In this document: positions 20,120 to 57,613 of the stretch, in pieces
How positions within the stretch are numbered: position 1 is the first letter of the stretch
Layout: each line of letters begins with the position of its first letter
Assembly: GCA_021513695.1 (NCBI GenBank)
Contig: CP084166.1
Location: 1 to 64,000, forward strand
Length of the DNA stretch: 64,000 nt
Origin: Candidatus Heimdallarchaeum aukensis
Lineage (GTDB): Archaea > Asgardarchaeota > Heimdallarchaeia > Heimdallarchaeales > Heimdallarchaeaceae
Direction of reading: 5' to 3'
The notes under the pieces: generated by a model
Seen by the model: the letters and a program-made list of their open reading frames with translations, nothing else
Databases searched by the model: none
What the model was told of the DNA's origin: nothing
Made by a program: the position numbers and the translations under genes

Positions 20120-21751
20120 TTAATAAACTCTTTTGTTATCTTTAAAGACAAATAGTTTATTTGGATTGATATATACTTTTATTGTATCTCCTACTATTTT
20201 TGAGATTATTTTATCTAGTCCTTCTACAACATCAATAAGGAGAATAGTTCCGTCTTTAAGCAATCCTGTTAATTTGGCTTCTTTACCTAAATATTCTATC
20301 GTATGTATCTCAATTTCTAATTCAAAACAACCGTCTATATTCTTCAGAGAAACATCTTCTGGTCTTACAACAATAGCTAATTCAGTTCCTTTATCAATCT
20401 CTTCTTTAACCTCGATTTTTATTTTTTCTCCACCCTTTAGTTTAACGATTCCATCACCCTCGTAATTACCCATTAGAGTGGTTGATTCACCAATGAACTG
20501 AGCTACGAAGAGAGTTTTTGGATCATCCCACACTTCTCTAGGTTTACCGTATTGTTCAATGTAACCAACGTTCATAACCGCTATACGGTCACTAATTGCT
20601 AATGCTTCAGTTTGATCATGTGTTACATATACTGCAGTCATACCTATTTTCTTTATAATAGAACGAATTTCTGTTCTAAGCTCTTTTCTCAGTTTAGCAT
20701 CTAAATTGCTTAATGGTTCATCACAAAGCAAAACATCTGGTTCAACAACTATTGCTCTAGCTAAAGCAATTCTTTGTTGTTGGCCTCCACTTAATTCAGG
20801 AGGATTTTTGTAAGCTTGATCTTCAAGATGAACCATTTTCAGAGCGTCAAAGACTTTTTTTCTCCTGAAAGCCCAATCAGGGTCTATCTTTTCTTTACTA
20901 TCTAAATAAGCTTTTTTACTTTCTGAAAAAGGAAGTCTAACGTATTTCCATAGTTTAATTAAAAACCAAGTTATTTTAGCGACTGATGATGTATGTTTTT
21001 TTAAATATTCTTTTTTCTCTTTTTCTATTGTTTCAGAAACATATTTGTAGGTTAAAGGATGAAAAATAAAGAATGGTCGAGTTAAAGGATATAGCATGAT
21101 GTAAATTGGTTTCCTGTATTTTACTTTCTCTTCTTTAGTTTTTGTTTCTGGTAACCAATCAGGGAGTTCTCTGACGACATAGGAATAATGGTCTCTAATT
21201 GCTTTCTTTAGTGTCTTAAGCACATATTTGATATTTTTTAATTTAATTTTTGGATCATTCAGTTCTTGTTGGACTTCTTCAGTAGACAAATTCCAACATG
21301 TCTCAGTATTTTTGTCTTTGCAATAGTCAACAATGTATTCAGCTATTTTTTCTAATTGTTTAGTTGCACCATAACTCGAAAATGATAAGTCAGAAATTGT
21401 ATCTTTCTTTACTTTAATGAAAAAAACGATTTTTTCTTTTAATCTTAATTTTAGACCGTATTCAACATTTCCGAAAATGGACATATGAGGCCATAAAGCG
21501 TAATTTTGAAAGATCATTGCAGTATTTCTTTTTTGTGGAGGAAGTAAAGTAACATCTTTATCTCCTAAAAATATCTGACCTTCAAAGGGTTCAACGAATC
21601 CTGCTAATGAACGAAGTAATGTAGTCTTACCACAACCACTAGGACCAAGTAAAGTAGTAATCTCTCCGTCTGGTATTTCTAAATCAATATTCCTTACTGC
21701 AATAAAATCATCATAAGCAATTCCAATATTTTTGTATTTTACAGAAACCAA
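20120..21751 (-). CDS. ABC transporter ATP-binding protein (importer-type with C-terminal TOBE-like domain) carrying a ~190-aa insertion between Q-loop and signature motif
   Basis: Walker A 'GPSGCGKTT', Q-loop 'MIFQNY', signature 'LSGGQQQRIALARA', Walker B 'LLCDEP', H-loop 'VTHDQ'. The signature sits at about aa 322 instead of about aa 140. There is no adjacent permease or substrate-binding gene. Confidence 0.75.
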   Translation of the reverse strand: MVSVKYKNIGIAYDDFIAVRNIDLEIPDGEITTLLGPSGCGKTTLLRSLAGFVEPFEGQIFLGDKDVTLLPPQKRNTAMIFQNYALWPHMSIFGNVEYGLKLRLKEKIVFFIKVKKDTISDLSFSSYGATKQLEKIAEYIVDYCKDKNTETCWNLSTEEVQQELNDPKIKLKNIKYVLKTLKKAIRDHYSYVVRELPDWLPETKTKEEKVKYRKPIYIMLYPLTRPFFIFHPLTYKYVSETIEKEKKEYLKKHTSSVAKITWFLIKLWKYVRLPFSESKKAYLDSKEKIDPDWAFRRKKVFDALKMVHLEDQAYKNPPELSGGQQQRIALARAIVVEPDVLLCDEPLSNLDAKLRKELRTEIRSIIKKIGMTAVYVTHDQTEALAISDRIAVMNVGYIEQYGKPREVWDDPKTLFVAQFIGESTTLMGNYEGDGIVKLKGGEKIKIEVKEEIDKGTELAIVVRPEDVSLKNIDGCFELEIEIHTIEYLGKEAKLTGLLKDGTILLIDVVEGLDKIISKIVGDTIKVYINPNKLFVFKDNKRVY

Positions 21752-23017: not shown

Positions 23018-25990
23018 TTAAATTGGGACTAGAATGTCGTATAAATTGTTATCGCCTATTTTTTCTTTTAGTAGTTTTTTTAGTTTTTGATTAATATCTT
23101 TATAAAAACGTAGTTTCATTTCAGAACTTAATTGCCAAGTGTTAAACTCTTGATTCACAATTAGGATATTTTCTTGCATTCTTTTAATTACATCTTCAAT
23201 CGAAAATACTGATGAGAATAAAATACCCATTTCTGAAATATTAAGATTTATTGTGTTAGGTGTTAATTCTTGTACTTTCTGCAGTAACGAAAGAGTATAT
23301 TTTAGTTCTGGAAAACTAATTAATTGTCCTTCTAGTTCTTGAATTGTAAATTGCCCAATAATATTAGCGTCGACTAATTGCTTAAATGGTTCAGTAAGCT
23401 CGTTGTATTCTCTGAAATACGAAACTGTGTAAAGATTTTCTAATTGTTCTCTTATTTCTTCTTTAATAATTTCTAGTGATTTGTTTGGTTCTTTATTTTT
23501 TAGTGCTAAATTAATAGTTGGAGATAGATGAATAAGAGATTCTTGAGTGATTTCGAATTTATTGTTTTCTGGAAGTTTTACTTTAAGAATATCAAAGGGT
23601 AACTCTGGAAGAGCTATATAGAACTCTTCTTCATTTTCATTTTCATGTATTGAATTATCTAAAAGAAACTCTCTAAAGTAAAGAGAAAATTTGGATAATT
23701 GACGTTTTAAACTTTCACTCCCCACAAAAGCTTTTTTCCTTAAGCCTAATTGTTGTTTTAGAATTTCTAATAGAGATGGGATTTCTATTTTGTTAAAAAC
23801 CACTTTGTTTTTATCTAAGGAAGGAACCCATTTATCTGAAGAGCCATATTCAACAGCTATTCTTCCTGCAGTAGTTGTTTCAGAGAATAAAGCTTCCATT
23901 CCATAACTAAGAATTAAATTAGTTAATGGAATGTAAGTAGCTTCGCTTTTACCAACAACAGCGATTCTAATAAAACCATACCCTGGATAAATAGAGTAAT
24001 TTCTAACTATTTCTCGGAGATCATTGTTTAAAACTATGGATAAAGTCATAGGATGAGTTAGCTCTATGGTATTTCCAACCATAAAAAAGTATCCAATTTC
24101 AAAGAAATCTTGATATTTGTTTAGAGGAGGAAGGAATCTTATTATATTGTCAATCGTTATAATCAATGGTGTTTCTACAAGCTGTAGAAGCTTCTTGTAT
24201 TTAATCTCTACATCTAGTTCTTGAAAACGCTCCTCATTTAATGTTCGTATGAGAAAATCCAAGAATTCACAACTTGTAATAAAATACTTATTGTCTTGAT
24301 AGGTAAAAAGGATACCATTATCAACCTTAGATTCCTCTATTTCATCAATAATTGAGAAAAATTTGTCTATTGAAATGTCTTCTTCTTTTTGTATTTTGTC
24401 TTGTTCATTTAGATTTAAACTAATCAAAAATTTATTGATAAATTCTATATTCTCATTTTCAGTAATAAAATCTTCTAGTGCTTTATAGCTTATTGAATAT
24501 TTTAAGTCTGAAACGCTAAAAGAAAATTTGTCATTCTCTTGACTTAAAAATTTAATAGTTTCTGAAAAGTTTTTTAACATTACTTTTCTATTTAACTCAA
24601 TATAAGCTAACATTTCTTTGAAAAATTGTACTTCATCATCAAAAAAAGCATAGTCAATATCAGTGTTATTTGCTGAATGCTTTGTTAAGTTTTTTATTAT
24701 TGAAATGAAGAAAGCCTTCATTCTAGTATCTTTCATTGCAGCTTGTTCTATAATATCAAGTAATATTTTGAGTTCGGGTGAGTTAGAACTCCTTTTTTCC
24801 ATTTCAGAAAGAATTTCATGAGGAGTCAACTCTTTACTTTTTTTCTCTCCAAAAGTGTGTTGAATTGATGATTTAGGATTATACGAATACCTGAGAAACT
24901 CTGATACTTTTTTTATTTTGAAACCTATATTACGAATATCTTTAGTCCAGTTTCCAGTTTCTAGATCACTAGCAAAAGAAAAAAGGTTCAGGAACTTATC
25001 TTGACTAAGTTCCAAGATCGTTTTGTTTTCTAGTTGTTCTGTATCTAGCGAATGCTGTTTATTTATTTTGTACAAAATATGCGCAAAATAAGCCATCACA
25101 CTTATACCAAAAGCTCTTTTTCTTTTTGAAAAAAGTGATTCTTCAGGATTTTCATTTAAGATTCGCATGAGTTCTCTAGAATAACTATTCAATAATCTAA
25201 TGTTAATAAATTCATTTTTCTTATCTTGTTTTTCAGGGCTTAAAGGAAAAATTGCTGGAACCATAAAGTTGTCAAATATCTGCGATGATTCATTTTCTTC
25301 TTTTATTTGTTTGAATCTATCAAAATTTTCCTTCATCAGCGAAGAAAAACTCCCCATAAAAAGAGACAGAGTTGGAAAAAAAGGTTCTTCTTTCTTCGAG
25401 TTAATGATTGAAAGTAGAACTTCTGTTTCTGGAACAAGAGAGTTAAGCATTTTTAAGATGCTCAATGTGCGTGAATCGATATTTTCTGTTTCTACAGTAA
25501 GTCCAATATGGGACGAAGATTTAAGAAAAGATTCTATTTCACTCATTATACTATTTATGAGTTCACGCAACTTTGATCCGTCTTCTTCTATTGATCTTAA
25601 TGTAGGATTAAACAAACACTTTCTGTACATCACTGCAGCTAAGTTCTGCCAATCTTCAAATTCTTCTATGTTTTTGTCAAGAATTGATAGAAAAGTAAGA
25701 AGAAACTCTTCTCCATAAAAACTGAATCTGGGAATGGTAACCAAATGACTTAAAATTTCATTAGTGTTGAACTTCTTTAATTTTTTATCTTTTTCAGCGA
25801 TTTCTTCTTTTTCTACTTTTTTTTCTCCTTTACTTGTCAAAACTTGTTTAATTATCTCTCTTGCAGGTTCTTGCGCCTTACTTCTACTTAATCCGTATGT
25901 GCGAATAAGATAGGTTACGACCAACCCAAAAGCGTCATCTCCATTTTCAATGATATTCTCCTTAAGTTCATCAGTAATATAGTAACTCAT
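23018..25990 (-). CDS. large hypothetical protein (990 aa), no recognisable catalytic motif
   Basis: Long uninterrupted ORF with coding-like composition. No Walker A, no metal-binding clusters and no TM segments seen. Confidence 0.5.
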   Translation of the reverse strand: MSYYITDELKENIIENGDDAFGLVVTYLIRTYGLSRSKAQEPAREIIKQVLTSKGEKKVEKEEIAEKDKKLKKFNTNEILSHLVTIPRFSFYGEEFLLTFLSILDKNIEEFEDWQNLAAVMYRKCLFNPTLRSIEEDGSKLRELINSIMSEIESFLKSSSHIGLTVETENIDSRTLSILKMLNSLVPETEVLLSIINSKKEEPFFPTLSLFMGSFSSLMKENFDRFKQIKEENESSQIFDNFMVPAIFPLSPEKQDKKNEFINIRLLNSYSRELMRILNENPEESLFSKRKRAFGISVMAYFAHILYKINKQHSLDTEQLENKTILELSQDKFLNLFSFASDLETGNWTKDIRNIGFKIKKVSEFLRYSYNPKSSIQHTFGEKKSKELTPHEILSEMEKRSSNSPELKILLDIIEQAAMKDTRMKAFFISIIKNLTKHSANNTDIDYAFFDDEVQFFKEMLAYIELNRKVMLKNFSETIKFLSQENDKFSFSVSDLKYSISYKALEDFITENENIEFINKFLISLNLNEQDKIQKEEDISIDKFFSIIDEIEESKVDNGILFTYQDNKYFITSCEFLDFLIRTLNEERFQELDVEIKYKKLLQLVETPLIITIDNIIRFLPPLNKYQDFFEIGYFFMVGNTIELTHPMTLSIVLNNDLREIVRNYSIYPGYGFIRIAVVGKSEATYIPLTNLILSYGMEALFSETTTAGRIAVEYGSSDKWVPSLDKNKVVFNKIEIPSLLEILKQQLGLRKKAFVGSESLKRQLSKFSLYFREFLLDNSIHENENEEEFYIALPELPFDILKVKLPENNKFEITQESLIHLSPTINLALKNKEPNKSLEIIKEEIREQLENLYTVSYFREYNELTEPFKQLVDANIIGQFTIQELEGQLISFPELKYTLSLLQKVQELTPNTINLNISEMGILFSSVFSIEDVIKRMQENILIVNQEFNTWQLSSEMKLRFYKDINQKLKKLLKEKIGDNNLYDILVPI

Positions 25991-41233: not shown

Positions 41234-42496
41234 TTATTTATATTCACGAATAACTGGTAGAGTAACTACGCTTTCTATCCATGGTAATTTAGCTATAGAT
41301 TTCCTTATCAAGTTGTAAGCTTTTCCAATATTTCTTAATCTTATTGAAATTATTAAATCATAAACTCCTGAAGTATAAGCGACAGATTCTATACCCCTTA
41401 TTTGAGATAATTTTTCTAAATCGATTTTCTCTCCAATTTTTATTTTAGCAAAGATCAATCCTCTAGTTTCAGACATAGATAAGGTAACTACACCTATTAA
41501 AATAAGGATCGAACCTGATATTTTAAGGATTATACCTACTATATCATTTCCTCCTGAACTGAATATTGCTGGAAACCAAATTGCAAAAATAGCTGCCAAA
41601 GGATAAGTGGAGATAACGCTTATACTGTTTAAAGCTCTTACAATAGACATCTTCCCCATCGTAAGTGCTCTAGTGTAAGCAATTACACCAAGATAAACCA
41701 ATAACATTGAGCAAATTACAGGAACTAAAGAGGGTCTCCAATTTTCTTTTATCTCATTAAAACCTACTCTGTAGATACTAGGAAGCGATGCTATTACTTG
41801 CCCTGCTGTCATAATAAAAAGTGTCCATATTCTTAGACTTAGCGTATCTATCTTTCTTCCTTTATCATTTTTTGTTACTAAAGCTTTCTTTTGAAAAACA
41901 GTATATAATGCCGAAAATAAAGCAAATGGACCAAAGATAAGTAAAATACCTATAGCATCTAATTTTCCACCAGAAATTGTAGAAATCATTACTCCTACAG
42001 CTATCATTGTAATTGATTGGATTTCAATTGCAACAGGTTTTTCTCTTTCTGAAATAGAATCAGCAATAAGCAAGTAAACGAGAACAAATTGGCTAAATGG
42101 CATTATTAGAGATGCATCATACTTTTCTAAAAGAACAAAATAGAGTATAGTGTTTCCTGTAGCAAAAAGACCAGCAAGAAGGGTATATAGTAAAACTTTG
42201 CCTTTAGGAAACATTATTCCTTGAAAATTAGGGTCAAAATAGTAACCCAGAGTTTTCTTAAATTCTTTATCTTTGTTTGGTAGAGGAATAGAAAGAATAA
42301 GTATAAGAATTATTGACACTATTAAACCTACAACCATCTCATATGCTCCAAAAAGATAAGGATCAGTAATGAAACTGTTGCCAATTGCATCTAGTACTAC
42401 CCACAGGCTAGTGATTAAACCAGATCCCAAGGCTAGTAGATAAAACGTACTTTTTCTTCTAATTTTACTAAATTCTCTATGGGCTGCAATTGACAT
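41234..42496 (-). CDS. DMT/EamA-like 10-TM transporter fused to a C-terminal Lrp/AsnC-type RAM (ligand-binding) domain
   Basis: About 330 aa of TM helices, then 'IGEKIDLEKLSQIRGIESVAYTSGVYDLIISIRLRN...LPWIESVVTLPVIREY', which resembles the AsnC C-terminal domain. Confidence 0.5.
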   Translation of the reverse strand: MSIAAHREFSKIRRKSTFYLLALGSGLITSLWVVLDAIGNSFITDPYLFGAYEMVVGLIVSIILILILSIPLPNKDKEFKKTLGYYFDPNFQGIMFPKGKVLLYTLLAGLFATGNTILYFVLLEKYDASLIMPFSQFVLVYLLIADSISEREKPVAIEIQSITMIAVGVMISTISGGKLDAIGILLIFGPFALFSALYTVFQKKALVTKNDKGRKIDTLSLRIWTLFIMTAGQVIASLPSIYRVGFNEIKENWRPSLVPVICSMLLVYLGVIAYTRALTMGKMSIVRALNSISVISTYPLAAIFAIWFPAIFSSGGNDIVGIILKISGSILILIGVVTLSMSETRGLIFAKIKIGEKIDLEKLSQIRGIESVAYTSGVYDLIISIRLRNIGKAYNLIRKSIAKLPWIESVVTLPVIREYK

Positions 42497-45261: not shown

Positions 45262-46251
45262 TTAATGTTCAATAAATTCTTTCTCGCTTATAACTTTACA
45301 TGTTAATGTTTTAGCAGCAAAAGGTATGAAACTTTTTTCTAGCTCCTTTTTAACCTTTTCAAAAATCAAATAGCGATTTTCTTCACTTGTTAGATCCAAA
45401 GTAATGATTTCAGTTAAATTTTCTATTAATGTAAGCAAAGGACCTTTTTCTATTAGTACATACTCTGTTGTTACTAATAAAGCAATGTTATGATAACTAA
45501 TAAACAGTAGTTTATATTCCTCAAAGTTAATTTCTTCCATTGAACTAAGTTGTTTTTTGTTTGTTGAATTTAGCCACTTATTCTCATAAGCACTAATTAT
45601 GTTCTTAACTTTTTCTCTGGTTCTTGTATTATCGTGTATATGAAGATTAACTCCGTCTTTTTTAATGAAAATATCTACCGATAAAATGTTTGGCATTAAT
45701 CCTGTTTTTTTACTAACCAACTTGCTTATTAACCAATTCATCGCATCGCTTATGTATTCGCCTGTTTTGACTGAAATGAAAAAGAATCGAAAACTCATCT
45801 GACTTTCAATTGAAATTAATTTGTTAAGTTCAAATCCTTTAACAATTTCTTCAATAACTCTTTCTTTTTCTGTAATTAAGTCCATCTTATTACCTAGAAA
45901 AAGCACTGGTATATCTTTGTTTTTTATCCATTCTAAAATAGTATAGAACCATTCTTTACTTTCTGGTAAACTTTCTAAATTTGAAGCGTCAAAAATGAAA
46001 ATTAAAGCAGAGGAAAGATTAATGTAATTTTTCCAAATGTGCTTTCTGAATGCTTGGTGTCCCCCCATATCCCAAATTTGAAGGGGAAAACCTTGGTACT
46101 CGGTAAATTCTACATCAACACCTAAAGTCGGAGGAGAAGAAACAAAGGTTCCCGATAGTAACCTTTGGGTAAAGCTAGATTTTCCGGCTTGTGGAAGGCC
46201 AGTTATAGCAATAGAGAATCTTGTCATTTTTGAGTTCACTTCAATTAGCAC
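45262..46251 (-). CDS. Arf-family-like small GTPase with ~140-aa C-terminal extension (roadblock/longin-like domain candidate)
   Basis: G1 'GLPQAGKSS', G3 'WDMGGHQ', G4 'GNKMDL', G5 'SVKTGEYISDAMNWL'. All resemble Arf/Arl/Sar proteins. Confidence 0.8.
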   Translation of the reverse strand: MLIEVNSKMTRFSIAITGLPQAGKSSFTQRLLSGTFVSSPPTLGVDVEFTEYQGFPLQIWDMGGHQAFRKHIWKNYINLSSALIFIFDASNLESLPESKEWFYTILEWIKNKDIPVLFLGNKMDLITEKERVIEEIVKGFELNKLISIESQMSFRFFFISVKTGEYISDAMNWLISKLVSKKTGLMPNILSVDIFIKKDGVNLHIHDNTRTREKVKNIISAYENKWLNSTNKKQLSSMEEINFEEYKLLFISYHNIALLVTTEYVLIEKGPLLTLIENLTEIITLDLTSEENRYLIFEKVKKELEKSFIPFAAKTLTCKVISEKEFIEH

Positions 46252-47231: not shown

Positions 47232-48443
47232 ATGAAGAAAGTAGATGGATTGTTAGAAGAACATGGGCGTTCTAAGATAGAAGTATATGTTGACTGGGAA
47301 AATGGAAATTATGTTCCAAAAGAAGTATTTGAAGCAATGAAACCTTTTTATCTAGAGCGAGGTTTTGCTAATCCTGCCATAACACATCGTTTAGGTTGGG
47401 AAACTTACGAACTTTATGTAGAAACAAAAGAAAAATTAGTTCAACCTTTGAATATTTCTCCTCAGGATTTCTATATTACACATGGTTTAACTGAATCCAA
47501 TAATATTGCTATTCGAGGGGTTGCCAAAGCAAATAAAAAGAGAAAGAAAATAATTACTTCTTCTGTAGAACATCTAAGTGTTATTCATTCTAGCAGATTC
47601 ATGGAAAGTCAAGGATATAAGATAGAAGAGATACCTGTATATAGTAATGGAATTATTGATTTAGACAGATTACAAGACATAATTGACGAAGAAACGCTTA
47701 TAGTAAGTGTGCAGTTAGCAAATCATGAAATTGGTTCAATTCAACCATTACGCGAAGTTATTGAAATCGTGAAGGACAAGAATAAGGATATTCTTGTTCA
47801 CTCTGATATGTCTGCAGCTTTTGGAAGAATGAAAATTGATCTAAACAAATTAGATATTGATTTAGCTACATTTGACAGTTCAAAGATTTTAGGTCCTAAA
47901 GGCGTTGGAGGTCTATTCGTAAAAGAAGGGGTACATGTTAAACCATTGCTTGAAGGTCAATTAAGTGTCGAAATTCTCTCTCCTGAAGTAGAAATTATGC
48001 CCTTGATTGCAGGTTTTGCAAAAGCAGTTGAATTACAATTTGAGAACTTTGATGAACATATTTCGAGTTTAACTAAATTAAGAAACAAACTTCTATATGG
48101 TCTTTATACAACTATTCCAAAAACATTAATTAATGGAGCAGAGGGTGAAAAGAGAATAGCTGATAATGTCAATTTAAGCTTCATAGGTTGTGAGGGCGAA
48201 GCTTTAACAGTAGAATGTAGCATGAATGGTATTTATACCTCAAGTGGAAGCGCGTGTTCTAGTAGAATTCTAATGCCAAGTCATATCTTAACAGCAATAG
48301 GTAGGCGACCAGAGGAAGCCCATGGTAGCCTTTTAATGAAGATAAGTCGTCTAAATACAGAAGCGCAAATTGAGTATATTTTAGAAACAATGCCTAAAGT
48401 AGTTACAAGACTTAGAAAAATTACAGGAAGTATTGAGCTATAG
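47232..48443 (+). CDS. iscS: cysteine desulfurase (IscS/NifS, class V aminotransferase)
   Basis: PLP lysine 'DSSKILGPKG' and active-site loop 'SSGSACSS'. Confidence 0.85.
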   Translation: MKKVDGLLEEHGRSKIEVYVDWENGNYVPKEVFEAMKPFYLERGFANPAITHRLGWETYELYVETKEKLVQPLNISPQDFYITHGLTESNNIAIRGVAKANKKRKKIITSSVEHLSVIHSSRFMESQGYKIEEIPVYSNGIIDLDRLQDIIDEETLIVSVQLANHEIGSIQPLREVIEIVKDKNKDILVHSDMSAAFGRMKIDLNKLDIDLATFDSSKILGPKGVGGLFVKEGVHVKPLLEGQLSVEILSPEVEIMPLIAGFAKAVELQFENFDEHISSLTKLRNKLLYGLYTTIPKTLINGAEGEKRIADNVNLSFIGCEGEALTVECSMNGIYTSSGSACSSRILMPSHILTAIGRRPEEAHGSLLMKISRLNTEAQIEYILETMPKVVTRLRKITGSIEL

Positions 48444-48474
48444 AAAATAATAAAAAATTAAATTAAAAGAAAAG

Positions 48475-48987
48475 GTGAAAAAGATGTCAAGTAGAATTCC
48501 TCTACCATATTCGCAAAGAGTGATAGAACTCTTTAAGAATCCAGTAAATTTAGGAAAAATGGATGATGCAACAGTATTTGCACAAGCAGGTTCTCCAGCA
48601 TGTGGAGATATGATTGCTTTTTATCTTAAAATAGATGAAAAAAAAGAAAAAATCACAAAATCCTCTTTTGAAAGCTTTGGTTGTGCATCAAATATCGCAG
48701 CAGCAAGTGAAGTAACTATAATGATCCATAATAAAACTTTGAAAGAAGCATGGAATATCAGTTGGAAAGACGTTTCTGATGCTCTTGGAGGGTTACCAAA
48801 AATAAAAAATCACTGTGGGACTCTTGCAGTTGGTGCATTACAAAGAGCTATTAGAAAATACTATACAACCATTAAGAAAGAAATACCCGATTGGTTACCC
48901 AAAGAATACACAAAAGATGAAAAACATGCTATGGAAGAAGAAGAGTTAGCAAAGAAACTTGCCAAAAAATATAACCTTTCAATCTAG
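48475..48987 (+). CDS. iscU: IscU/NifU-like Fe-S scaffold with ~40-aa C-terminal extension
   Basis: Three conserved Cys positions 'PACGD', 'FGCAS', 'HCGTLA'. Extension 'EIPDWLPKEYTKDEK...'. Confidence 0.8.
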   Translation: MKKMSSRIPLPYSQRVIELFKNPVNLGKMDDATVFAQAGSPACGDMIAFYLKIDEKKEKITKSSFESFGCASNIAAASEVTIMIHNKTLKEAWNISWKDVSDALGGLPKIKNHCGTLAVGALQRAIRKYYTTIKKEIPDWLPKEYTKDEKHAMEEEELAKKLAKKYNLSI

Positions 48988-51727: not shown

Positions 51728-52999
51728 ATGGGTTTTGCATTGAAACAAAAAAAGATTCCCAGTTTTGTAATTATTCTACTTCTTTTTTCCTCTCTCATCG
51801 TTCTTGATGTTGTACGTCAAGGAAAATTTAGATCAGAGAAAAACGAGATTATTCTACGGATGTTATATACTAGCGAAAAAAAAGCTTGGATAAACACTGT
51901 CACTGTGGATTTTCCTGAGTGGTTTTCTTCTCGGAATCCAGACCTATCTGTTCATCTGGAGTTTGAAGTTTTAGGTACTAGATCCTCTATGATTTCAATT
52001 TTGTCAGGAGAGAGTAAACCTGTTATCTGGAGTCCAGCTTCTAGTGTTTGGGTTCCCCTTCTTGATTGGTCTTGGAAGAAAAAATTTGGTTTTTCTATCA
52101 TTGATGAAGAAAAAGTGAAATCACTTGTTTCTTCTCCTATAATTATTGGTGTTTGGAAGAGTTACGCTGAAAAACATAATTTAACATCATGGTCTGACCT
52201 ATATACTTTATCCTTTAAGGACCTTAAACTTGCACATACTTCTGCACAAGAATCAAATTCTGGTTATATGGCGGTTTTATTGGAAATCGCTGCTGCTAGT
52301 GGAAAACCTCCAAATGAAATAACTTTAGATGATCTAAAAAATTCGACTATCCAAAACTGGTTAAAACAAGTAGAATCTTCTGCAGTGTTATACGGCTCTT
52401 CTACTGGCTTCTTAGCAAAACAAGCTGTTCAGTTAGGTCCTGCAGGAATAAATGTTATGATATTATATGAGAATTTAATAATTGAAACTGCAAAAGATGG
52501 CGAAGCTTATGCAAAATGGAACGATAGTATCATTGCTGTTTATCCTTCTGAAGGAACATTATGGAGCGATCATCCAATTGTATTATTGAATGCTAGTTGG
52601 GTTTCTCCTGAAGAATATTTTGCTGCAACAGAATTTGAAAAATTTTTATTAAGTAAAGAAATACAGAAAAAAGCTATTCCTTTTGGTTTTAGACCTGGAA
52701 ATCAATCAATCATTAATGATATTGATGTGTTAGAGGAAATAAACTCTATCTTTAAAGAAGAGAACGGTGTAAAACCTACACTTTCCATTCCACTTTTTAA
52801 AACACCAACTGATGGAGAAGTTCTTGACAGAATTCCTGATTTATGGCTAAAAACAAGGGCAACATCACTTGAAAGCCCAGAAAATAACACGGATGTTCAA
52901 CTAGGTTTCTCTCCTTATTCAACCTATTTAGTTTTTCTAATCGCTTTTCTACTGTTAATTCCCATAAAAAATCGAAAAAATAGGCGGGTGAAAGACTAG
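51728..52999 (+). CDS. ABC transporter substrate-binding protein (membrane-anchored)
   Basis: N-terminal anchor 'FVIILLLFSSLIVL'. Its position upstream of the permease and ATPase genes points to an SBP. A C-terminal hydrophobic tail is present. Confidence 0.5.
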   Translation: MGFALKQKKIPSFVIILLLFSSLIVLDVVRQGKFRSEKNEIILRMLYTSEKKAWINTVTVDFPEWFSSRNPDLSVHLEFEVLGTRSSMISILSGESKPVIWSPASSVWVPLLDWSWKKKFGFSIIDEEKVKSLVSSPIIIGVWKSYAEKHNLTSWSDLYTLSFKDLKLAHTSAQESNSGYMAVLLEIAAASGKPPNEITLDDLKNSTIQNWLKQVESSAVLYGSSTGFLAKQAVQLGPAGINVMILYENLIIETAKDGEAYAKWNDSIIAVYPSEGTLWSDHPIVLLNASWVSPEEYFAATEFEKFLLSKEIQKKAIPFGFRPGNQSIINDIDVLEEINSIFKEENGVKPTLSIPLFKTPTDGEVLDRIPDLWLKTRATSLESPENNTDVQLGFSPYSTYLVFLIAFLLLIPIKNRKNRRVKD

Positions 53000-54717
53000 T
53001 GTTTAAAACTGATAAAGAAAATATTGAACTATTCTTCAGGAAAACAAGGTTAAAGATTGAAACTTTTCTTTCGCGAAATTCAGTCTTGCTAATTGGAAAA
53101 ATAATTACAATTTCTATTTTTATTCTAATAATTATTGGACCTATTTTTTACCTACTATTACAAATTTTCTTACATTGGGGCGAAATTTATTCTAAGGTAT
53201 TTAATGACCCAATTCTAGGGAACGAAGCTTTTCTAATGATGCTTCGTTCAATAGGTTTGTCATTAAAAGTTGCTGGAATTGTTACCTTTTTCGATTTAAT
53301 TGTAGGAATACCAATAGCTTGGGTATTGGCAAGATACAATTTTAAAGGAAAAAAGATTTTGGACACTCTTGTAGATATGCCTATGGCTGTACCAACAAGT
53401 GCGCTCGGTTTTTCTATCTATCTTTTTTGGGGAACAAATAATGGTATATCACGTTTATTAAATTCTAATGTCGGATTAGTTTCTCAAGGAACTCTTTTAA
53501 TTATACTTACTCACATAGCTTTTACATTTCCGTATGTTACGAGATCTATCAAGGGAATAATTGCAGATTTAGACATTAACATAGAGAAAGCTGCAAAAAC
53601 ATTAGGAGCTCCTCCTTTTACAATTGCAAGAATGATTTCTCTTCCTATGGTTAAAGAGTCTTTATTAGCAGGGACTGTTCTGGCCTTTACTCGTTCTTTA
53701 GGAGAAACAGGTGCAACATTAATTGTGAGTGGAGTTTACCAAACAGCTCCTGTTGTAATTGTTAGTTGGATGAAAGGATTAAAGATTCCCACCACTGCTT
53801 TTCTTTCTCTGATCTTAATAATTATCAGTTTACTGTTACTTACTGCTGTTAGGTTATTTGCTCGAAAGGTAGGTCTTCCTTGGAACAAAGTTTTTCCAAG
53901 ATTTGAAAGAAAAATTAGTTCAAAAAAAGTAGCGAGAACTAGAGATAGTTTATCTATTACTCTTTTCTTTATTTTTGTCTTTATACCCGCCCTCTTTGTT
54001 GTTATTTACTTGTTTCAATGGTGGAATAAATCTCCTTTTTCTGGAGACCATGAAGCTGGGATGATTTATCAAGTGTTTCAAGCTCCAGATAAAAAAATTG
54101 ATTCAATAGTTCATGCTTTCGTTACATCAGTAGAAGTAGCATTGATAGTTACAATTGTTAATCTGGTAATTGCTACACCTATGGCTCTACTTATTTCAAA
54201 AACTAAGAATGATAAACTTAAAGGACTTCTTGATACATTGATTGATATCCCTTTAATTATTCCTAGTTCTGCACTTGGTTTTAGCATATTCTTCCTCTGG
54301 GGATCAAATGGTCTGCATCTCCTTTCACCAGGATTTATGATGATTATTGTTTCTCATATCTCTTTCACCTATGCCTATTGTGTCAGACCTCTCGTTGGTG
54401 CTTTTGATGCAATCCCAACAATGTATGATGAAGCTGCTTTCGCCTTTGGTTCATCTAGACTTACAGCTTTTAGGACAGTCACCATGCCTTTCCTAAAAAG
54501 TGGATTAATTGCAGTTTCTATTATGACTTTTACTCGCTCTATGAGTGAAACTGGTGCAACAATAATCGTTCAAGGAGTAGAAAGAACAATCCCTGTTTTG
54601 CTGGTTGATTTCTTTGAAGCTTCTACTTTTCCTGCTGCAGCTTTTGCTGCTTCTTTGTTAATATTGATTTCATTCCTTTCATTGCTTCTGCTTCGATATG
54701 TTTCTAAGGAGAGATAG
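52999..54717 (+). CDS. ABC transporter permease, fused double transmembrane domain (FbpB/ThiP/CysTW-like)
   Basis: Two EAA-loop motifs: 'KAAKTLGAPPFTIARMISLP' and 'DEAAFAFGSSRLTAFRTVTMP'. About 12 TM helices. Translationally coupled to the SBP. Confidence 0.8.
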   Translation: MFKTDKENIELFFRKTRLKIETFLSRNSVLLIGKIITISIFILIIIGPIFYLLLQIFLHWGEIYSKVFNDPILGNEAFLMMLRSIGLSLKVAGIVTFFDLIVGIPIAWVLARYNFKGKKILDTLVDMPMAVPTSALGFSIYLFWGTNNGISRLLNSNVGLVSQGTLLIILTHIAFTFPYVTRSIKGIIADLDINIEKAAKTLGAPPFTIARMISLPMVKESLLAGTVLAFTRSLGETGATLIVSGVYQTAPVVIVSWMKGLKIPTTAFLSLILIIISLLLLTAVRLFARKVGLPWNKVFPRFERKISSKKVARTRDSLSITLFFIFVFIPALFVVIYLFQWWNKSPFSGDHEAGMIYQVFQAPDKKIDSIVHAFVTSVEVALIVTIVNLVIATPMALLISKTKNDKLKGLLDTLIDIPLIIPSSALGFSIFFLWGSNGLHLLSPGFMMIIVSHISFTYAYCVRPLVGAFDAIPTMYDEAAFAFGSSRLTAFRTVTMPFLKSGLIAVSIMTFTRSMSETGATIIVQGVERTIPVLLVDFFEASTFPAAAFAASLLILISFLSLLLLRYVSKER

Positions 54718-54720
54718 ATA

Positions 54721-55821
54721 ATGACAGAGATACAATTTAAACATGTGACAAAAATTTTTGGAAGAAAAGTAGAAGCAGTTAAGGATTTATCTTTCATCAT
54801 AGAAGATGGAGAATATGTTTCGCTCATTGGACCTTCAGGTTGTGGGAAAACAACTACTCTTCGTCTTCTGGCTGGAACAGTTTTACCAACAAGAGGAAAG
54901 ATTTTCTTTGACAATAGAGAAGTAGAGAATCTTCCAATTCAAGAAAGGAATCTAGGGTTTGTTTTCCAACATTTTGCTATTTTTCCTCATATGAATGTAT
55001 GGGAAAATATAGCTTATGGTCCAACTGTAAAAGGAAAGAAAAAAAGTGAAATTGAAGAGTTAGTAGAACATTCTCTCTCTTCTGTTCAGATGAAAGAAAG
55101 AGCAGAATCTTTTCCTTCTGAATTGTCAGCACCAGAACTACAAAAAGTAGCTTTAGCAAGAGTAATAGCTGCTGAAGCAAAAATACTTCTCTTAGATGAA
55201 CCTTTAGGAGCATTAGATCAAAAAATAAGAGAAGAATTTCAATTTTTCTTACGTGATTTTGTTAAAAAGCAAGGCCTTACAGCGATACATGTTACACATG
55301 ATCAAGCAGAAGCTCTTTCAATCAGTGATAAAGTAATAGTGTTGAATAAAGGCCAATTAGTTCAGATGGGTACTCCTGATGATCTGATATTTTCTCCAAC
55401 AAACTTGTTTACTTCATTTTTTGTTGGAGAAAGCGATTTTATTGAAGGATATGTCCTTGACGATTCTTCTCGGTTTTCAAAAGTCAGAGTAGGTTTAGAA
55501 AGTATAAATGTACAAAATGCTGGAATACATAAGGGAGAACATGTAGTTATAGCAATTAGAAGAGAGTTCTTCGATGTTAGAAAAGCAGATCAAAATAATG
55601 AGAACTTTTTAACTGGAAAAGTAATTAGTGACCAATTTTTGGGACTGTTTCGAAGAGTCAAAGTTTTATTAAAAAATCAGCAGATAATTGAAGCTAAAAT
55701 TCATGCTAAAAGTCCTTTAAAATTTGAAGAAAATGAAACAGTTCATGTTATTATAGACCCAGCTAGAACTAGATGCTTTGAATTTCCGAAAGAAGGAATA
55801 AAAAAATCATTGGAGATGTAA
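54721..55821 (+). CDS. ABC transporter ATP-binding protein (PotA/FbpC-like with C-terminal TOBE domain)
   Basis: Walker A 'GPSGCGKTT', 'LLLDEPLGALD', H-loop 'VTHDQ'. Confidence 0.85.
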   Translation: MTEIQFKHVTKIFGRKVEAVKDLSFIIEDGEYVSLIGPSGCGKTTTLRLLAGTVLPTRGKIFFDNREVENLPIQERNLGFVFQHFAIFPHMNVWENIAYGPTVKGKKKSEIEELVEHSLSSVQMKERAESFPSELSAPELQKVALARVIAAEAKILLLDEPLGALDQKIREEFQFFLRDFVKKQGLTAIHVTHDQAEALSISDKVIVLNKGQLVQMGTPDDLIFSPTNLFTSFFVGESDFIEGYVLDDSSRFSKVRVGLESINVQNAGIHKGEHVVIAIRREFFDVRKADQNNENFLTGKVISDQFLGLFRRVKVLLKNQQIIEAKIHAKSPLKFEENETVHVIIDPARTRCFEFPKEGIKKSLEM

Positions 55822-55824
55822 GAA

Positions 55825-56979
55825 ATGGTTTCTGTGCGAATGGAGAACGTTACTAAAAAATACGGAAAAGTTATTGGCATCAAAGATTTATCTCTGTCTA
55901 TAAATGATGGAGAATATGTTGCCATATTAGGCCCAACTGGAGCTGGGAAAACTACAACAATGTATATTCTTGCAGGATTAATTTCTCCTTCATCAGGGAA
56001 GGTTTTTTTTGATGATGTTGATGTTACGGATGTTCCTGCTGAAGATAGACAAATTGGTTTTGTTTTTGAAGAATATAATCTCTTCCCAAGAATGAACGTG
56101 GAGAAAAATATTTTATTTGGTCCAATTGTAAAAAATCTAGATCTTTCGGTATCAAGAAAGGTTGCACTTGAATTGTTGGACTTGTTAAATATTAAAGGAA
56201 AAGAAAAGAATTATCCTAATGAAATTAGTGGAGGACAAAAACAACGTGTAGCACTAGCTCGAGCAATAGTTTCAAATGCTAAACTATTAATTATGGACGA
56301 CCCTTTACGAGCTTTAGATGCAAAAATAAGAGATATTTTACAAGTTGAACTTAGAAAGTTAGTTAAGGATCTTGGTTTAACTTGTATTCACGCTACTCAT
56401 GATACTCATGAAGCCATGAGAGTTGCTGACCGTATTCTTGTTTTTAAGGATGGGCAAATAGTTCAAGATGGAACACCCGAGGAGATCTACAATAATCCAA
56501 ATTCCATTTATGTTGCAGATTTTCTTGGAGAAAATGTTTCATTTCGAGGAGAAATCTTTGAAGAGAAAGAAGAGAGATATCTTTTAACAGAAAACAACCT
56601 AAAATTAAAAGTTCAAACAAATTATCTCACTGGAACAAAAGTTGTAGCTTTAGTTCCTTTAGAGCTTATAGATGTATATCCTAAAGAAGAATCAAATAGT
56701 TTAAACTACGATAATATCATTTCTGGTAAATTAATTAAATCAAAACTAATAGGTGAATTTTTTGAATTAATTCTTGAAATTTCAGGAATGAAAATAAAAG
56801 CTTATGAGTTAATTGGAAAGAAAAACATTCCAACAACTCCTAATTCAGATATTGTAATTGCTATGGATAAAGATGATTTCAGAATTTTTGAATTAGAAAA
56901 TGAAAAAGTAATAAATAATGAAAAAAGTATAGAGAGTGAAGAAGATGAATCAAAAAGAACTAAAAAGCTGGTTGAGTAG
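55825..56979 (+). CDS. second ABC transporter ATP-binding protein (paralog)
   Basis: Walker A 'GPTGAGKTT', signature 'ISGGQKQRVALARA', 'LIMDDPLRALD', 'ATHDTHEA'. Confidence 0.85.
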   Translation: MVSVRMENVTKKYGKVIGIKDLSLSINDGEYVAILGPTGAGKTTTMYILAGLISPSSGKVFFDDVDVTDVPAEDRQIGFVFEEYNLFPRMNVEKNILFGPIVKNLDLSVSRKVALELLDLLNIKGKEKNYPNEISGGQKQRVALARAIVSNAKLLIMDDPLRALDAKIRDILQVELRKLVKDLGLTCIHATHDTHEAMRVADRILVFKDGQIVQDGTPEEIYNNPNSIYVADFLGENVSFRGEIFEEKEERYLLTENNLKLKVQTNYLTGTKVVALVPLELIDVYPKEESNSLNYDNIISGKLIKSKLIGEFFELILEISGMKIKAYELIGKKNIPTTPNSDIVIAMDKDDFRIFELENEKVINNEKSIESEEDESKRTKKLVE

Positions 56980-57613
56980 AAGAAGAGAATCAAGGATTTT
57001 AGATAGAATTCGTGAGCATTTAGTTCATGTAAATAATACAATTCTAAAAGCTATGGATTTCTTTCAATTTTGGTTAAAAAAAGACGAATCTGCAGCTACT
57101 CACATTTTTGATTTAATACACCAAGAGGAAAAAACAGCAGATGCTATTGAAGCAGAAATAGTTCAAATGCTTTCAGAAGGAGAAACTCCTGATTATGTAC
57201 GAACAGATTTGCTAAACTTTATTCGTTTGGCAGATAAAGCAGCTGGTGGAATAAAGAGAGGATGTGATAATTTGCTATTGATTATTAACCATACTTACCC
57301 TGAAACTATTCAAAATGTTATAAAAGAAATCTTTGATAAGTTAACTAAAGAATCTGTTAGCTTTTTCGAAGCATTTGATAACATGTTTAAACTTTCTAAA
57401 GAGCAGCTTAAAGATAAAATAACTGAAGTAGACTTGATGGAATCAGAAATAGATAAGTTATACAAACAAATGAAATATGAAATAGCATACTCCACAGAAA
57501 ATGTTCCTGCAGGAGCATTAATAATTCTAGATCATGCTATTAGAGATATAGAGGAAGTATCAGACCTGTTAGAAGATTGTGCTGACTTAATTAGAAGTAT
57601 AGCGATACTTTAG
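56936..57613 (+). CDS. DUF47/PhoU-like regulatory protein (candidate)
   Basis: 225 aa, helical. 'HQEEKTADAIEAEIVQML' resembles the DUF47 motif. It overlaps the end of the ATPase gene. Confidence 0.35.
   Translation: MKKMNQKELKSWLSRRRESRILDRIREHLVHVNNTILKAMDFFQFWLKKDESAATHIFDLIHQEEKTADAIEAEIVQMLSEGETPDYVRTDLLNFIRLADKAAGGIKRGCDNLLLIINHTYPETIQNVIKEIFDKLTKESVSFFEAFDNMFKLSKEQLKDKITEVDLMESEIDKLYKQMKYEIAYSTENVPAGALIILDHAIRDIEEVSDLLEDCADLIRSIAIL

Follow-up and report, generated by a model that had tools for sequence, protein, structure and literature searches.

In MalFGK2-type transporters, the helical subdomain of the ATP-binding cassette (ABC) ATPase is the contact region for the membrane subunits. 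The ligands of IscU-type iron-sulfur (Fe-S) scaffolds are, in NifU numbering, Cys35, Cys62, Cys106, Asp37 and His105, and a Tyr, the first Cys and the Asp of the N-terminal part, together with Cys62, His105 and Cys106, are proposed to take part in forming the initial cluster and the complex with the desulfurase (PMC13066941). Garcia et al., whose classification is reviewed in PMC13066941, group archaeal IscS-IscU pairs without accessory genes as the MIS system (MisS/MisU). Both kinds of protein are encoded in the stretch analyzed here, the first 64,000 nt of contig CP084166.1 of Candidatus Heimdallarchaeum aukensis (the window), where an orphan importer-class ABC ATPase carries an insertion of about 200 residues in its helical subdomain. 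The N-terminal part of this insertion (module A) is almost certainly a degenerate copy of IscU that has come to lie within the ABC ATPase. The features compared are as follows.

20120..21751, minus strand: gene for an orphan ABC ATPase of the type I importer class, 543 aa from a TTG start, with a C-terminal TOBE_2 domain and the insertion of about 200 aa in its helical subdomain

20834..21439, minus strand: the whole insertion, approximately residues 105-306, between the helix ending in NVEYGLKLR and the helix before LSGGQ

21122..21433, minus strand: module A, residues 107-210, an N-terminally truncated, Cys-less NifU_N domain that runs into the proximal part of the C-terminal extension of archaeal IscU

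20834..21121, minus strand: module B, residues 211-306, with the aromatic-rich start PIYIMLYPLTRPFFIFHPLTY followed by long helices

21125..21205, minus strand: a 27-residue segment of module A, KAIRDHYSYVVRELPDWLPETKTKEEK, residues 183-209 of the 543-aa open reading frame (ORF)

21149..21163, minus strand: the PDWLP core of this 27-mer, residues 197-201, located by a six-frame scan

48475..48987, plus strand: gene for an IscU/MisU-type Fe-S scaffold, 170 aa if read from a GTG, but probably 167 aa with the ATG at 48484 as its start

48610..48927, plus strand: the IscU segment homologous to module A, residues 46-151 (46-151 by hhalign, 47-150 by BLASTP)

48844..48924, plus strand: the IscU counterpart of the 27-mer, RAIRKYYTTIKKEIPDWLPKEYTKDEK, residues 124-150 of the 170-aa ORF

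A first-pass annotation had drawn attention to the 27-residue segment, which in the ABC protein runs from halfway along the last IscU helix through the P-x-W-L-P segment to T..EK. Translation reproduces both peptides and their residue ranges (ABC 183-209 and IscU 124-150, ORF numbering), and a position-by-position count of the ungapped pair gives 14/27 identities, one fewer than the 15 first reported. The GC content of the window is 28–36% and both segments are rich in Lys and Glu, as would be expected if two Lys/Glu-rich proteins of an AT-rich genome had come to resemble each other through composition. However, the best 27-residue ungapped stretch between shuffled ABC protein and IscU had a mean of 8.5 identities (standard deviation 0.74, n = 500) and a maximum of 12, the runner-up among the 175 stop-to-stop segments of the window reached only 10/27, the compositionally adjusted BLASTP E-value of the longer alignment described below is 1e-16, and the motif is kept in the orthologs of both proteins. 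The resemblance is above chance, as had been claimed, and a compositional coincidence is hardly credible. Nor is the motif a frequent one, since across all six frames of the 64-kb window P.W[LIM]P was found in the ABC ATPase and IscU only.

The two proteins had been described as otherwise unrelated, but their homology covers about 105 residues, with ABC 107-210 corresponding to IscU 46-151, or two thirds of the IscU fold. BLASTP aligned ABC residues 108-209 with IscU residues 47-150 (36/105 identical), and Pfam NifU_N (PF01592) was detected inside the ABC protein at residues 108-188, covering profile positions 38-120 of 127 (24.3 bits; gathering score 22). When 14 orthologous insertion segments were compared with 28 archaeal IscU proteins by hhalign, ABC 107-210 and IscU 46-151 were aligned over 104 columns with a probability of 99.6% (E=1.1e-23). 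A profile of 20 insertion segments matches all tail-bearing IscU proteins through residue 148, with up to 75 bits, whereas the tail-less IscU of E. coli scores 25 bits and is matched only to residue 117. As first described, the 27-residue match runs out of the canonical domain into a tail, the Pfam NifU_N boundary of IscU (residue 133) lying inside it.

The extent of the similarity bears on whether the 27 or so residues are a linear motif in otherwise unrelated proteins, moved as a mini-module or selected independently for binding a common partner via E[IL]PDWLP. The P-x-W-[LI]-P and T..E[KR] positions are indeed invariant in both families, and the segment lies outside the canonical Pfam domain. 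A linear motif would have unrelated flanks, but upstream of the 27-mer the similarity goes on for some 77 residues and takes in the beta-hairpin and helices of IscU. The window contains no further copy of the motif, and a search with the whole insertion brought up no other family among 1.84 billion representatives. We consider a linear motif very improbable. The 27-mer is the slowest-evolving end of a degenerate IscU domain rather than a short module or shared peptide motif, so that of the transfer proposed in the first-pass annotation one part holds, a piece of sequence having moved by common descent from IscU into the ABC ATPase, and the shortness of the module does not.

Structure prediction agrees with the profile match in assigning module A to the NifU_N/IscU family. 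The AlphaFold2 (AF2) model of the full ABC protein, computed from a 98-sequence alignment, has a mean predicted local distance difference test score (pLDDT) of 93.7. In this model, module A consists of a beta-hairpin (108-126) and helices at 131-144, 149-153, 157-164 and 171-193, residues 194-215 (including PDWLP) have no secondary structure by DSSP and a pLDDT of 92-94, and module B is helical (216-306). A model of the insertion alone (residues 98-318) has a pLDDT of 92 and a predicted TM-score (pTM) of 0.82, and the 194-215 loop is at 88-96. Because the loop stays confident in the insertion-only model, it would be expected to pack on modules A and B and not on the ABC core, and the P-x-W-[LI]-P segment may accordingly be pictured as an ordered clasp rather than a free peptide ligand. 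In a Foldseek search of the PDB with the insertion, the top 43 matches were all IscU or SufU. The best matches to the ABC core plus TOBE domain were MalK, PotA, MsmX and PH0203, with target-normalised TM-scores (TMt) of 0.83-0.90; these proteins are about 360 aa long, so the insertion is left unmatched in the superposition.

For module B, no homolog was detectable, and its hydropathy is too low for a membrane span, by which a transmembrane segment was set aside. In orthologs it likewise opens with an aromatic-rich sequence, of the type PWYSRFLWVTKPYYFF, followed by helices, and occurs in long and short forms. An intein or other selfish insertion was also rejected, there being no Hint or homing-endonuclease Pfam match, a location in a surface loop of the helical subdomain, and a content of IscU fold plus helices; the insertion keeps the reading frame, is conserved across >40 independent sequences and evolves under purifying selection, which speaks equally against an intein, an assembly chimera or a frameshift.

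Module A has lost the chemistry of IscU. It begins directly past the Cys-Gly-Asp of IscU, at the equivalent of M46/I47, and by this truncation Tyr12, Cys43 and Asp45 are without counterpart. The position of Cys70 is occupied by A129 (A, S or T in orthologs), those of His113-Cys114 by K172-N173 (variable in orthologs), and no Cys is conserved among 20 module A orthologs, so that neither the scaffold ligands (three Cys, Asp and His) nor a complete domain, with the N-terminal Tyr region that serves desulfurase binding and dimerisation, is present. The GGLPxxK loop is degenerate, and in several orthologs with module A (L003-L011, P0126-P0142) 12-14 extra residues (e.g., EDISAFKLKYSLNS) are found at the loop equivalent to IscU 105-113; such inserts at the GGLPxxK-HC site show that the region became free to vary after ligand loss. 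What has been conserved is concentrated at the other end of the module. Nine columns do not vary in a set of 14 diverse orthologs (V109, W153, I185, R186, P197, W199, P201, T205 and E208), and all but the first two (7/9) lie in the 27-mer, with a consensus end of ELP[DE]W[LI]P..[KR]T..E[KR]. Mean pairwise identity among 19 orthologs with module A rises from 0.39 in the module A body to 0.56 in the 27-mer and 0.83-0.91 in the ABC core. Within this region the 27-mer is under the strongest constraint in both proteins, and it alone is recognizable by eye because the remainder of the domain drifted after losing its chemistry. One database IscU entry (P0241, 124 aa) starts at the internal Met of C-G-D-M (MIAIYIKL...), which is the point where module A starts; this start is probably mis-called, though it marks the same boundary.

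The IscU of the window, on the other hand, has the full domain, all ligands and an adjacent desulfurase, as expected of a functional scaffold.

47232..48443, plus strand: gene for a cysteine desulfurase (IscS/NifS/MisS-like) directly upstream of iscU, with a Pfam Aminotran_5 match of 166 bits

48877..48984, plus strand: the C-terminal extension of IscU, residues 135-170, EIPDWLPKEYTKDEKHAMEEEELAKKLAKKYNLSI, beyond the end of the Pfam domain at residue 133

Pfam NifU_N matches this IscU at residues 12-133 with 125.9 bits, and the ligands C43, D45, C70, H113 and C114 are invariant in the IscU alignment. The desulfurase scores 339 bits with the NifS and 275 bits with the IscS model of NCBIfam, both under the equivalog cutoffs. 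The true start of IscU is likely the ATG at 48484, which is preceded by a Shine-Dalgarno-like GGTGA and agrees with the close homologs, all of which begin MSSRIPLPY; biological numbering would then be the ORF numbering minus 3. An exact-sequence look-up of the 170-aa form gave no match, probably because gene callers use this ATG. On the upstream side of this pair, an OsmC-like gene stands between iscS and the gene for a 329-aa protein about 1 kb away (45262-46251, minus strand), whose N-terminal domain belongs to the Arf family of small GTPases (Pfam Arf, 99 bits); 'eukaryotic signature' proteins of this kind are typical of Asgard archaea.

The C-terminal extension is widespread. P.W[LIVMF]P is present in 101/120 of the closest IscU homologs, and most of the others have the variant P.WL[SQAE]. 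The motif is followed by T.[ED]EK[HQ]ALEEEELAK, the fuller consensus of the extension being P-x-W-[LM]-P...T.[ED]EK[HQ]ALEEEELAK.L.KK (P0001-P0120), and in a sample of 28 sequences P138, W140, P142 and E149 of IscU are invariant. Tail-bearing homologs are named from Heimdallarchaeaceae, other Asgard archaea, Bathyarchaeia, Thermoproteota, Nitrososphaerota, Brockarchaeota and Methanomicrobiaceae, and the tail is thus spread over many archaeal phyla and is not lineage-specific. The PDB contains no IscU with this tail, and in the literature searched we found no description of a conserved C-terminal extension of IscU and nothing relevant on MisU or on the IscU-like insertion of the Heimdall ABC protein. 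Since tail-bearing IscU is pan-archaeal and the insertion is restricted to one family, the direction of transfer is read as from IscU to the ABC ATPase. The shared sequence alone would equally allow the IscU tail to have been acquired from the ABC insertion, but IscU proteins of Bathyarchaeia, Thermoproteota, Nitrososphaerota, Methanomicrobiaceae and other Asgard archaea carry the tail where there is no ABC insertion, the insertion is limited to one orthogroup of Heimdallarchaeaceae, and the shared region includes the canonical IscU fold. We give this reverse direction next to no weight.

A scan of representative genomes retrieved 23 loci orthologous to the ABC gene, all of them in archaeal metagenome-assembled genomes and, where named, of the Heimdallarchaeota/Asgard group. 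The closest ortholog is that of Ca. Heimdallarchaeum endolithica PR6 (90% identity). A protein search returned 43 Heimdallarchaeaceae clusters with the insertion (401-543 aa) and, after them, canonical homologs (355-366 aa; L024, P0165 onward) from which it is absent. Some orthologs contain both modules and some only module B, while both are missing from the canonical relatives. When the 197-aa insertion was compared exhaustively with the 1.84 billion representatives by phmmer, two ABC orthologs and two IscU proteins were the only matches, so the insertion is confined to this ABC orthogroup. A search of a word-indexed set of 5.8 billion proteins with the insertion alone matched nothing, which reflects the sensitivity limit of the tool, as the exact protein is on record; the full-length query and the exhaustive search recovered the insertion-bearing orthologs. 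On one short contig (L012:1598-2806) the ABC ortholog is broken up into ORFs of 213 and 153 aa, which reflects either a frameshift or pseudogene or an assembly error.

The event is old, to judge from the 81-nt segments of the ABC and IscU genes, which share 52 positions and match at 13/27 third codon positions. The same low third-position match excludes recent gene conversion between the two loci. In the comparison with the PR6 ortholog, the ratio of nonsynonymous to synonymous substitution rates (dN/dS) is lowest in the ABC core (0.005-0.009) and higher in module B (0.09), TOBE (0.105) and module A (0.17), values which indicate that the insertion is under purifying selection but much less constrained than the ABC core. 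The insertion-bearing orthogroup is monophyletic with respect to canonical outgroups (100%), and a tree of three neighboring genes from the representative genomes separates species with and without module A at 99%.

From these data, the best explanation is that in an ancestor of the Heimdallarchaeaceae codons ~46-150 of a tail-bearing archaeal iscU were duplicated in frame into the gene of an orphan MalK/PotA-class ABC ATPase, landing in its helical subdomain. The copy would start just past the first Cys-Gly-Asp ligand motif, so that the N-terminal third was never present or was soon lost, and the remaining cluster ligands and the LPPVK-like loop would since have been replaced, leaving a module A that could not act as an Fe-S scaffold. 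It would persist under purifying selection as a folded, non-catalytic IscU-like module which, with the helical module B, gives the ATPase a compact appendage some 200 residues long, and the 27-residue match would be the last helix of the IscU fold together with the P-x-W-[LI]-P...T..E[KR] start of the archaeal IscU extension.

Several points weigh against this account, or leave parts of it loose. Module A is patchily distributed: the root of the orthogroup splits the window protein and P0121, which have it, and P0146 and P0147, which lack it, from the remainder (98% bootstrap), so that forms with and without module A occur on both sides of the outgroup root, and P0161 and P0163, which lack it, are nested within module A-bearing clades (100% and 95%). 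These placements require several losses or allele exchange, and they would allow A and B to have arrived together or B to have come before A. In addition, the donor could have been a lost iscU paralog instead of the housekeeping gene, and the packing of the clasp is taken from the pLDDT and pTM values only. A single early gain with several losses, or with allele exchange, fits the trees best. A simple nested order with B inserted first and A later was dropped as unproven, given that module A is found on both sides of the root and that two proteins without it fall within clades that have it.

The catalytic motifs of the ABC ATPase itself are intact. Pfam ABC_tran matches residues 20-347 with 110.9 bits and TOBE_2 scores 24.1 bits (gathering score 21), while an SMC_N match is weak and expected for any ABC head. 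In the 98-sequence alignment, the residues of the Walker A, Q-loop, LSGGQ, Walker B, D-loop and H-switch motifs are invariant, the columns including G36-K42, Q82, S321-Q324, D344-E345 and H378. Intact motifs and a TOBE-type domain, in agreement with the fold, place the protein among type I importer ATPases of the MalK/PotA/CysA class, and NCBIfam assigns it to the PotA/UgpC/PhnT2/FbpC/MalK class. No substrate-specific equivalog was obtained, the matches to PhnT2, PotA, UgpC, FbpC, MalK and WtpC all being below the NCBIfam curated cutoffs. No permease or binding-protein gene lies beside the ABC gene in the window or in 22 orthologous loci, where the conserved neighbors are genes for a class I/II aminotransferase, MBL-fold proteins and an AstE/AspA-family protein. 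On this basis we regard the protein as an orphan ATPase of the importer class with a lineage-specific appendage on its helical subdomain.

Other genes of this neighborhood include a 990-aa ORF two genes from the ABC gene (23018-25990, minus strand), which has no Pfam match; it is kept in the PR6 genome (L002), and L003 has a 989-aa ORF at a similar position, without a match at the clustering thresholds used. A fusion of an EamA transporter with a C-terminal AsnC/Lrp ligand-binding domain (420-429 aa) is encoded at 41234-42496 (minus strand) and at L004:3864-5153, and an EamA-AsnC/Lrp-like gene (cluster C5) recurs near the ABC gene in many orthologous loci. A complete and separate ABC importer operon is present at 51728-57613 (plus strand), with genes for a binding protein, for a double permease fused into one chain of 572 aa, for two canonical ATPases of 366 and 384 aa and for a PhoU_div/DUF47 protein. 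Its own two ATPases lie within 51728-56979, and the insertion-bearing ATPase is therefore not needed to energize that transporter.

As to function, the appendage may be a structural or partner-binding platform on the helical subdomain, near the docking site of the membrane subunits, a role suggested by the analogous insertions that other ABC ATPases have there and one that we favor slightly over its absence. Taken as a whole, the explanation by iscU duplication and a structural or partner-binding appendage is probable. It could be refined, and would not be contradicted, if the last-helix and tail surface of the pseudo-IscU still bound an IscU protomer, the desulfurase or an archaeal MIS partner, tethering the Fe-S assembly machinery to the ABC ATPase. 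What both proteins conserve coincides with the last helix plus the beginning of the tail, IscU proteins dimerise (PMC8617193), and the source names of the nearest canonical homologs include iron(III) and molybdate/tungstate importer ATPases. Conversely, the N-terminal Tyr, first Cys and Asp are missing from module A, the GGLPxxK loop is degenerate and in some orthologs expanded by the inserts of 12-14 residues, 27 kb separate the ABC gene from iscSU and its conserved neighbors are those listed above, and the substrate class of the ATPase is not assignable by NCBIfam. Such retained binding is unlikely. More doubtful still is that the ligand-less module uses this helix and the P-x-W-L-P tail surface to dock IscU/IscS (MIS) to an importer ATPase; the loss of the N-terminal and ligand-loop determinants, the lack of a gene-neighborhood link and the repeated loss of module A weigh against recruitment. 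Were docking to occur, uptake of a metal or another substrate would be physically coupled to Fe-S assembly in Heimdallarchaeaceae, and the pan-archaeal IscU extension would itself be a protein-interaction element of the little-studied MIS system.

The preferred reading, a duplicated and degenerate IscU fragment, provides a clean and datable case of an Asgard lineage building a new protein appendage, in which a piece of a housekeeping Fe-S scaffold was copied, lost its chemistry and was retained, presumably as a structural module. It is a modest curiosity of domain evolution with no bearing on a long-standing open question, but it highlights two uncharacterized features, the archaeal IscU extension (P-x-W-L-P...T.EEK.ALEEEELAK) and the Heimdallarchaeaceae-specific insertion of about 200 residues, which sits at the ATPase surface facing the membrane subunits.

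Among known systems, the closest solved structure to module A is the IscU of A. fulgidus (PDB 4eb5/4eb7), a member of the IscU/NifU N-terminal domain family (PF01592). In comparison with solved IscU proteins, module A is without the first ~45 residues (Tyr, first Cys and Asp), has its second Cys, His and third Cys replaced, is embedded in another protein, and has the archaeal P-x-W-L-P tail that is seen in no solved IscU. The iscS-iscU pair of the window (47232-48987) resembles MIS pairs in having all ligands and an adjacent desulfurase, and a pair of this type is the evident type of donor for module A. SufU and SufE/CsdE, which are among the fold matches of module A, are IscU-fold proteins without a scaffold role and set a precedent for repurposing; they have, however, stayed free-standing sulfur-transfer proteins with a functional Cys, whereas module A has no conserved Cys. 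On the ATPase side, the 'arm' of ABCF/EttA, the insertion domains of UvrA and the coiled coil of Rad50/SMC all lie between the Q-loop and the signature motif and are partner- or substrate-binding appendages, and the Heimdall insertion occupies the same topological position. To our knowledge, none of these is a transporter-class ATPase with TOBE, and none of their insertions is derived from IscU. The Heimdall ABC core and TOBE superpose on B. subtilis MsmX (PDB 6yir) and on MalK/PotA (TMt 0.83-0.90), but those proteins are about 360 aa long with no insertion and the Heimdall protein, with it, is 543 aa. MsmX is a 'multitask' importer ATPase whose gene has no adjacent permease or binding-protein gene, as is the case for the Heimdall ABC gene. 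An IscU-derived, ligand-less module in an importer-class ABC ATPase is a novel version of two known kinds, the degenerate IscU-fold domain and the ABC ATPase with an insertion in its helical subdomain.
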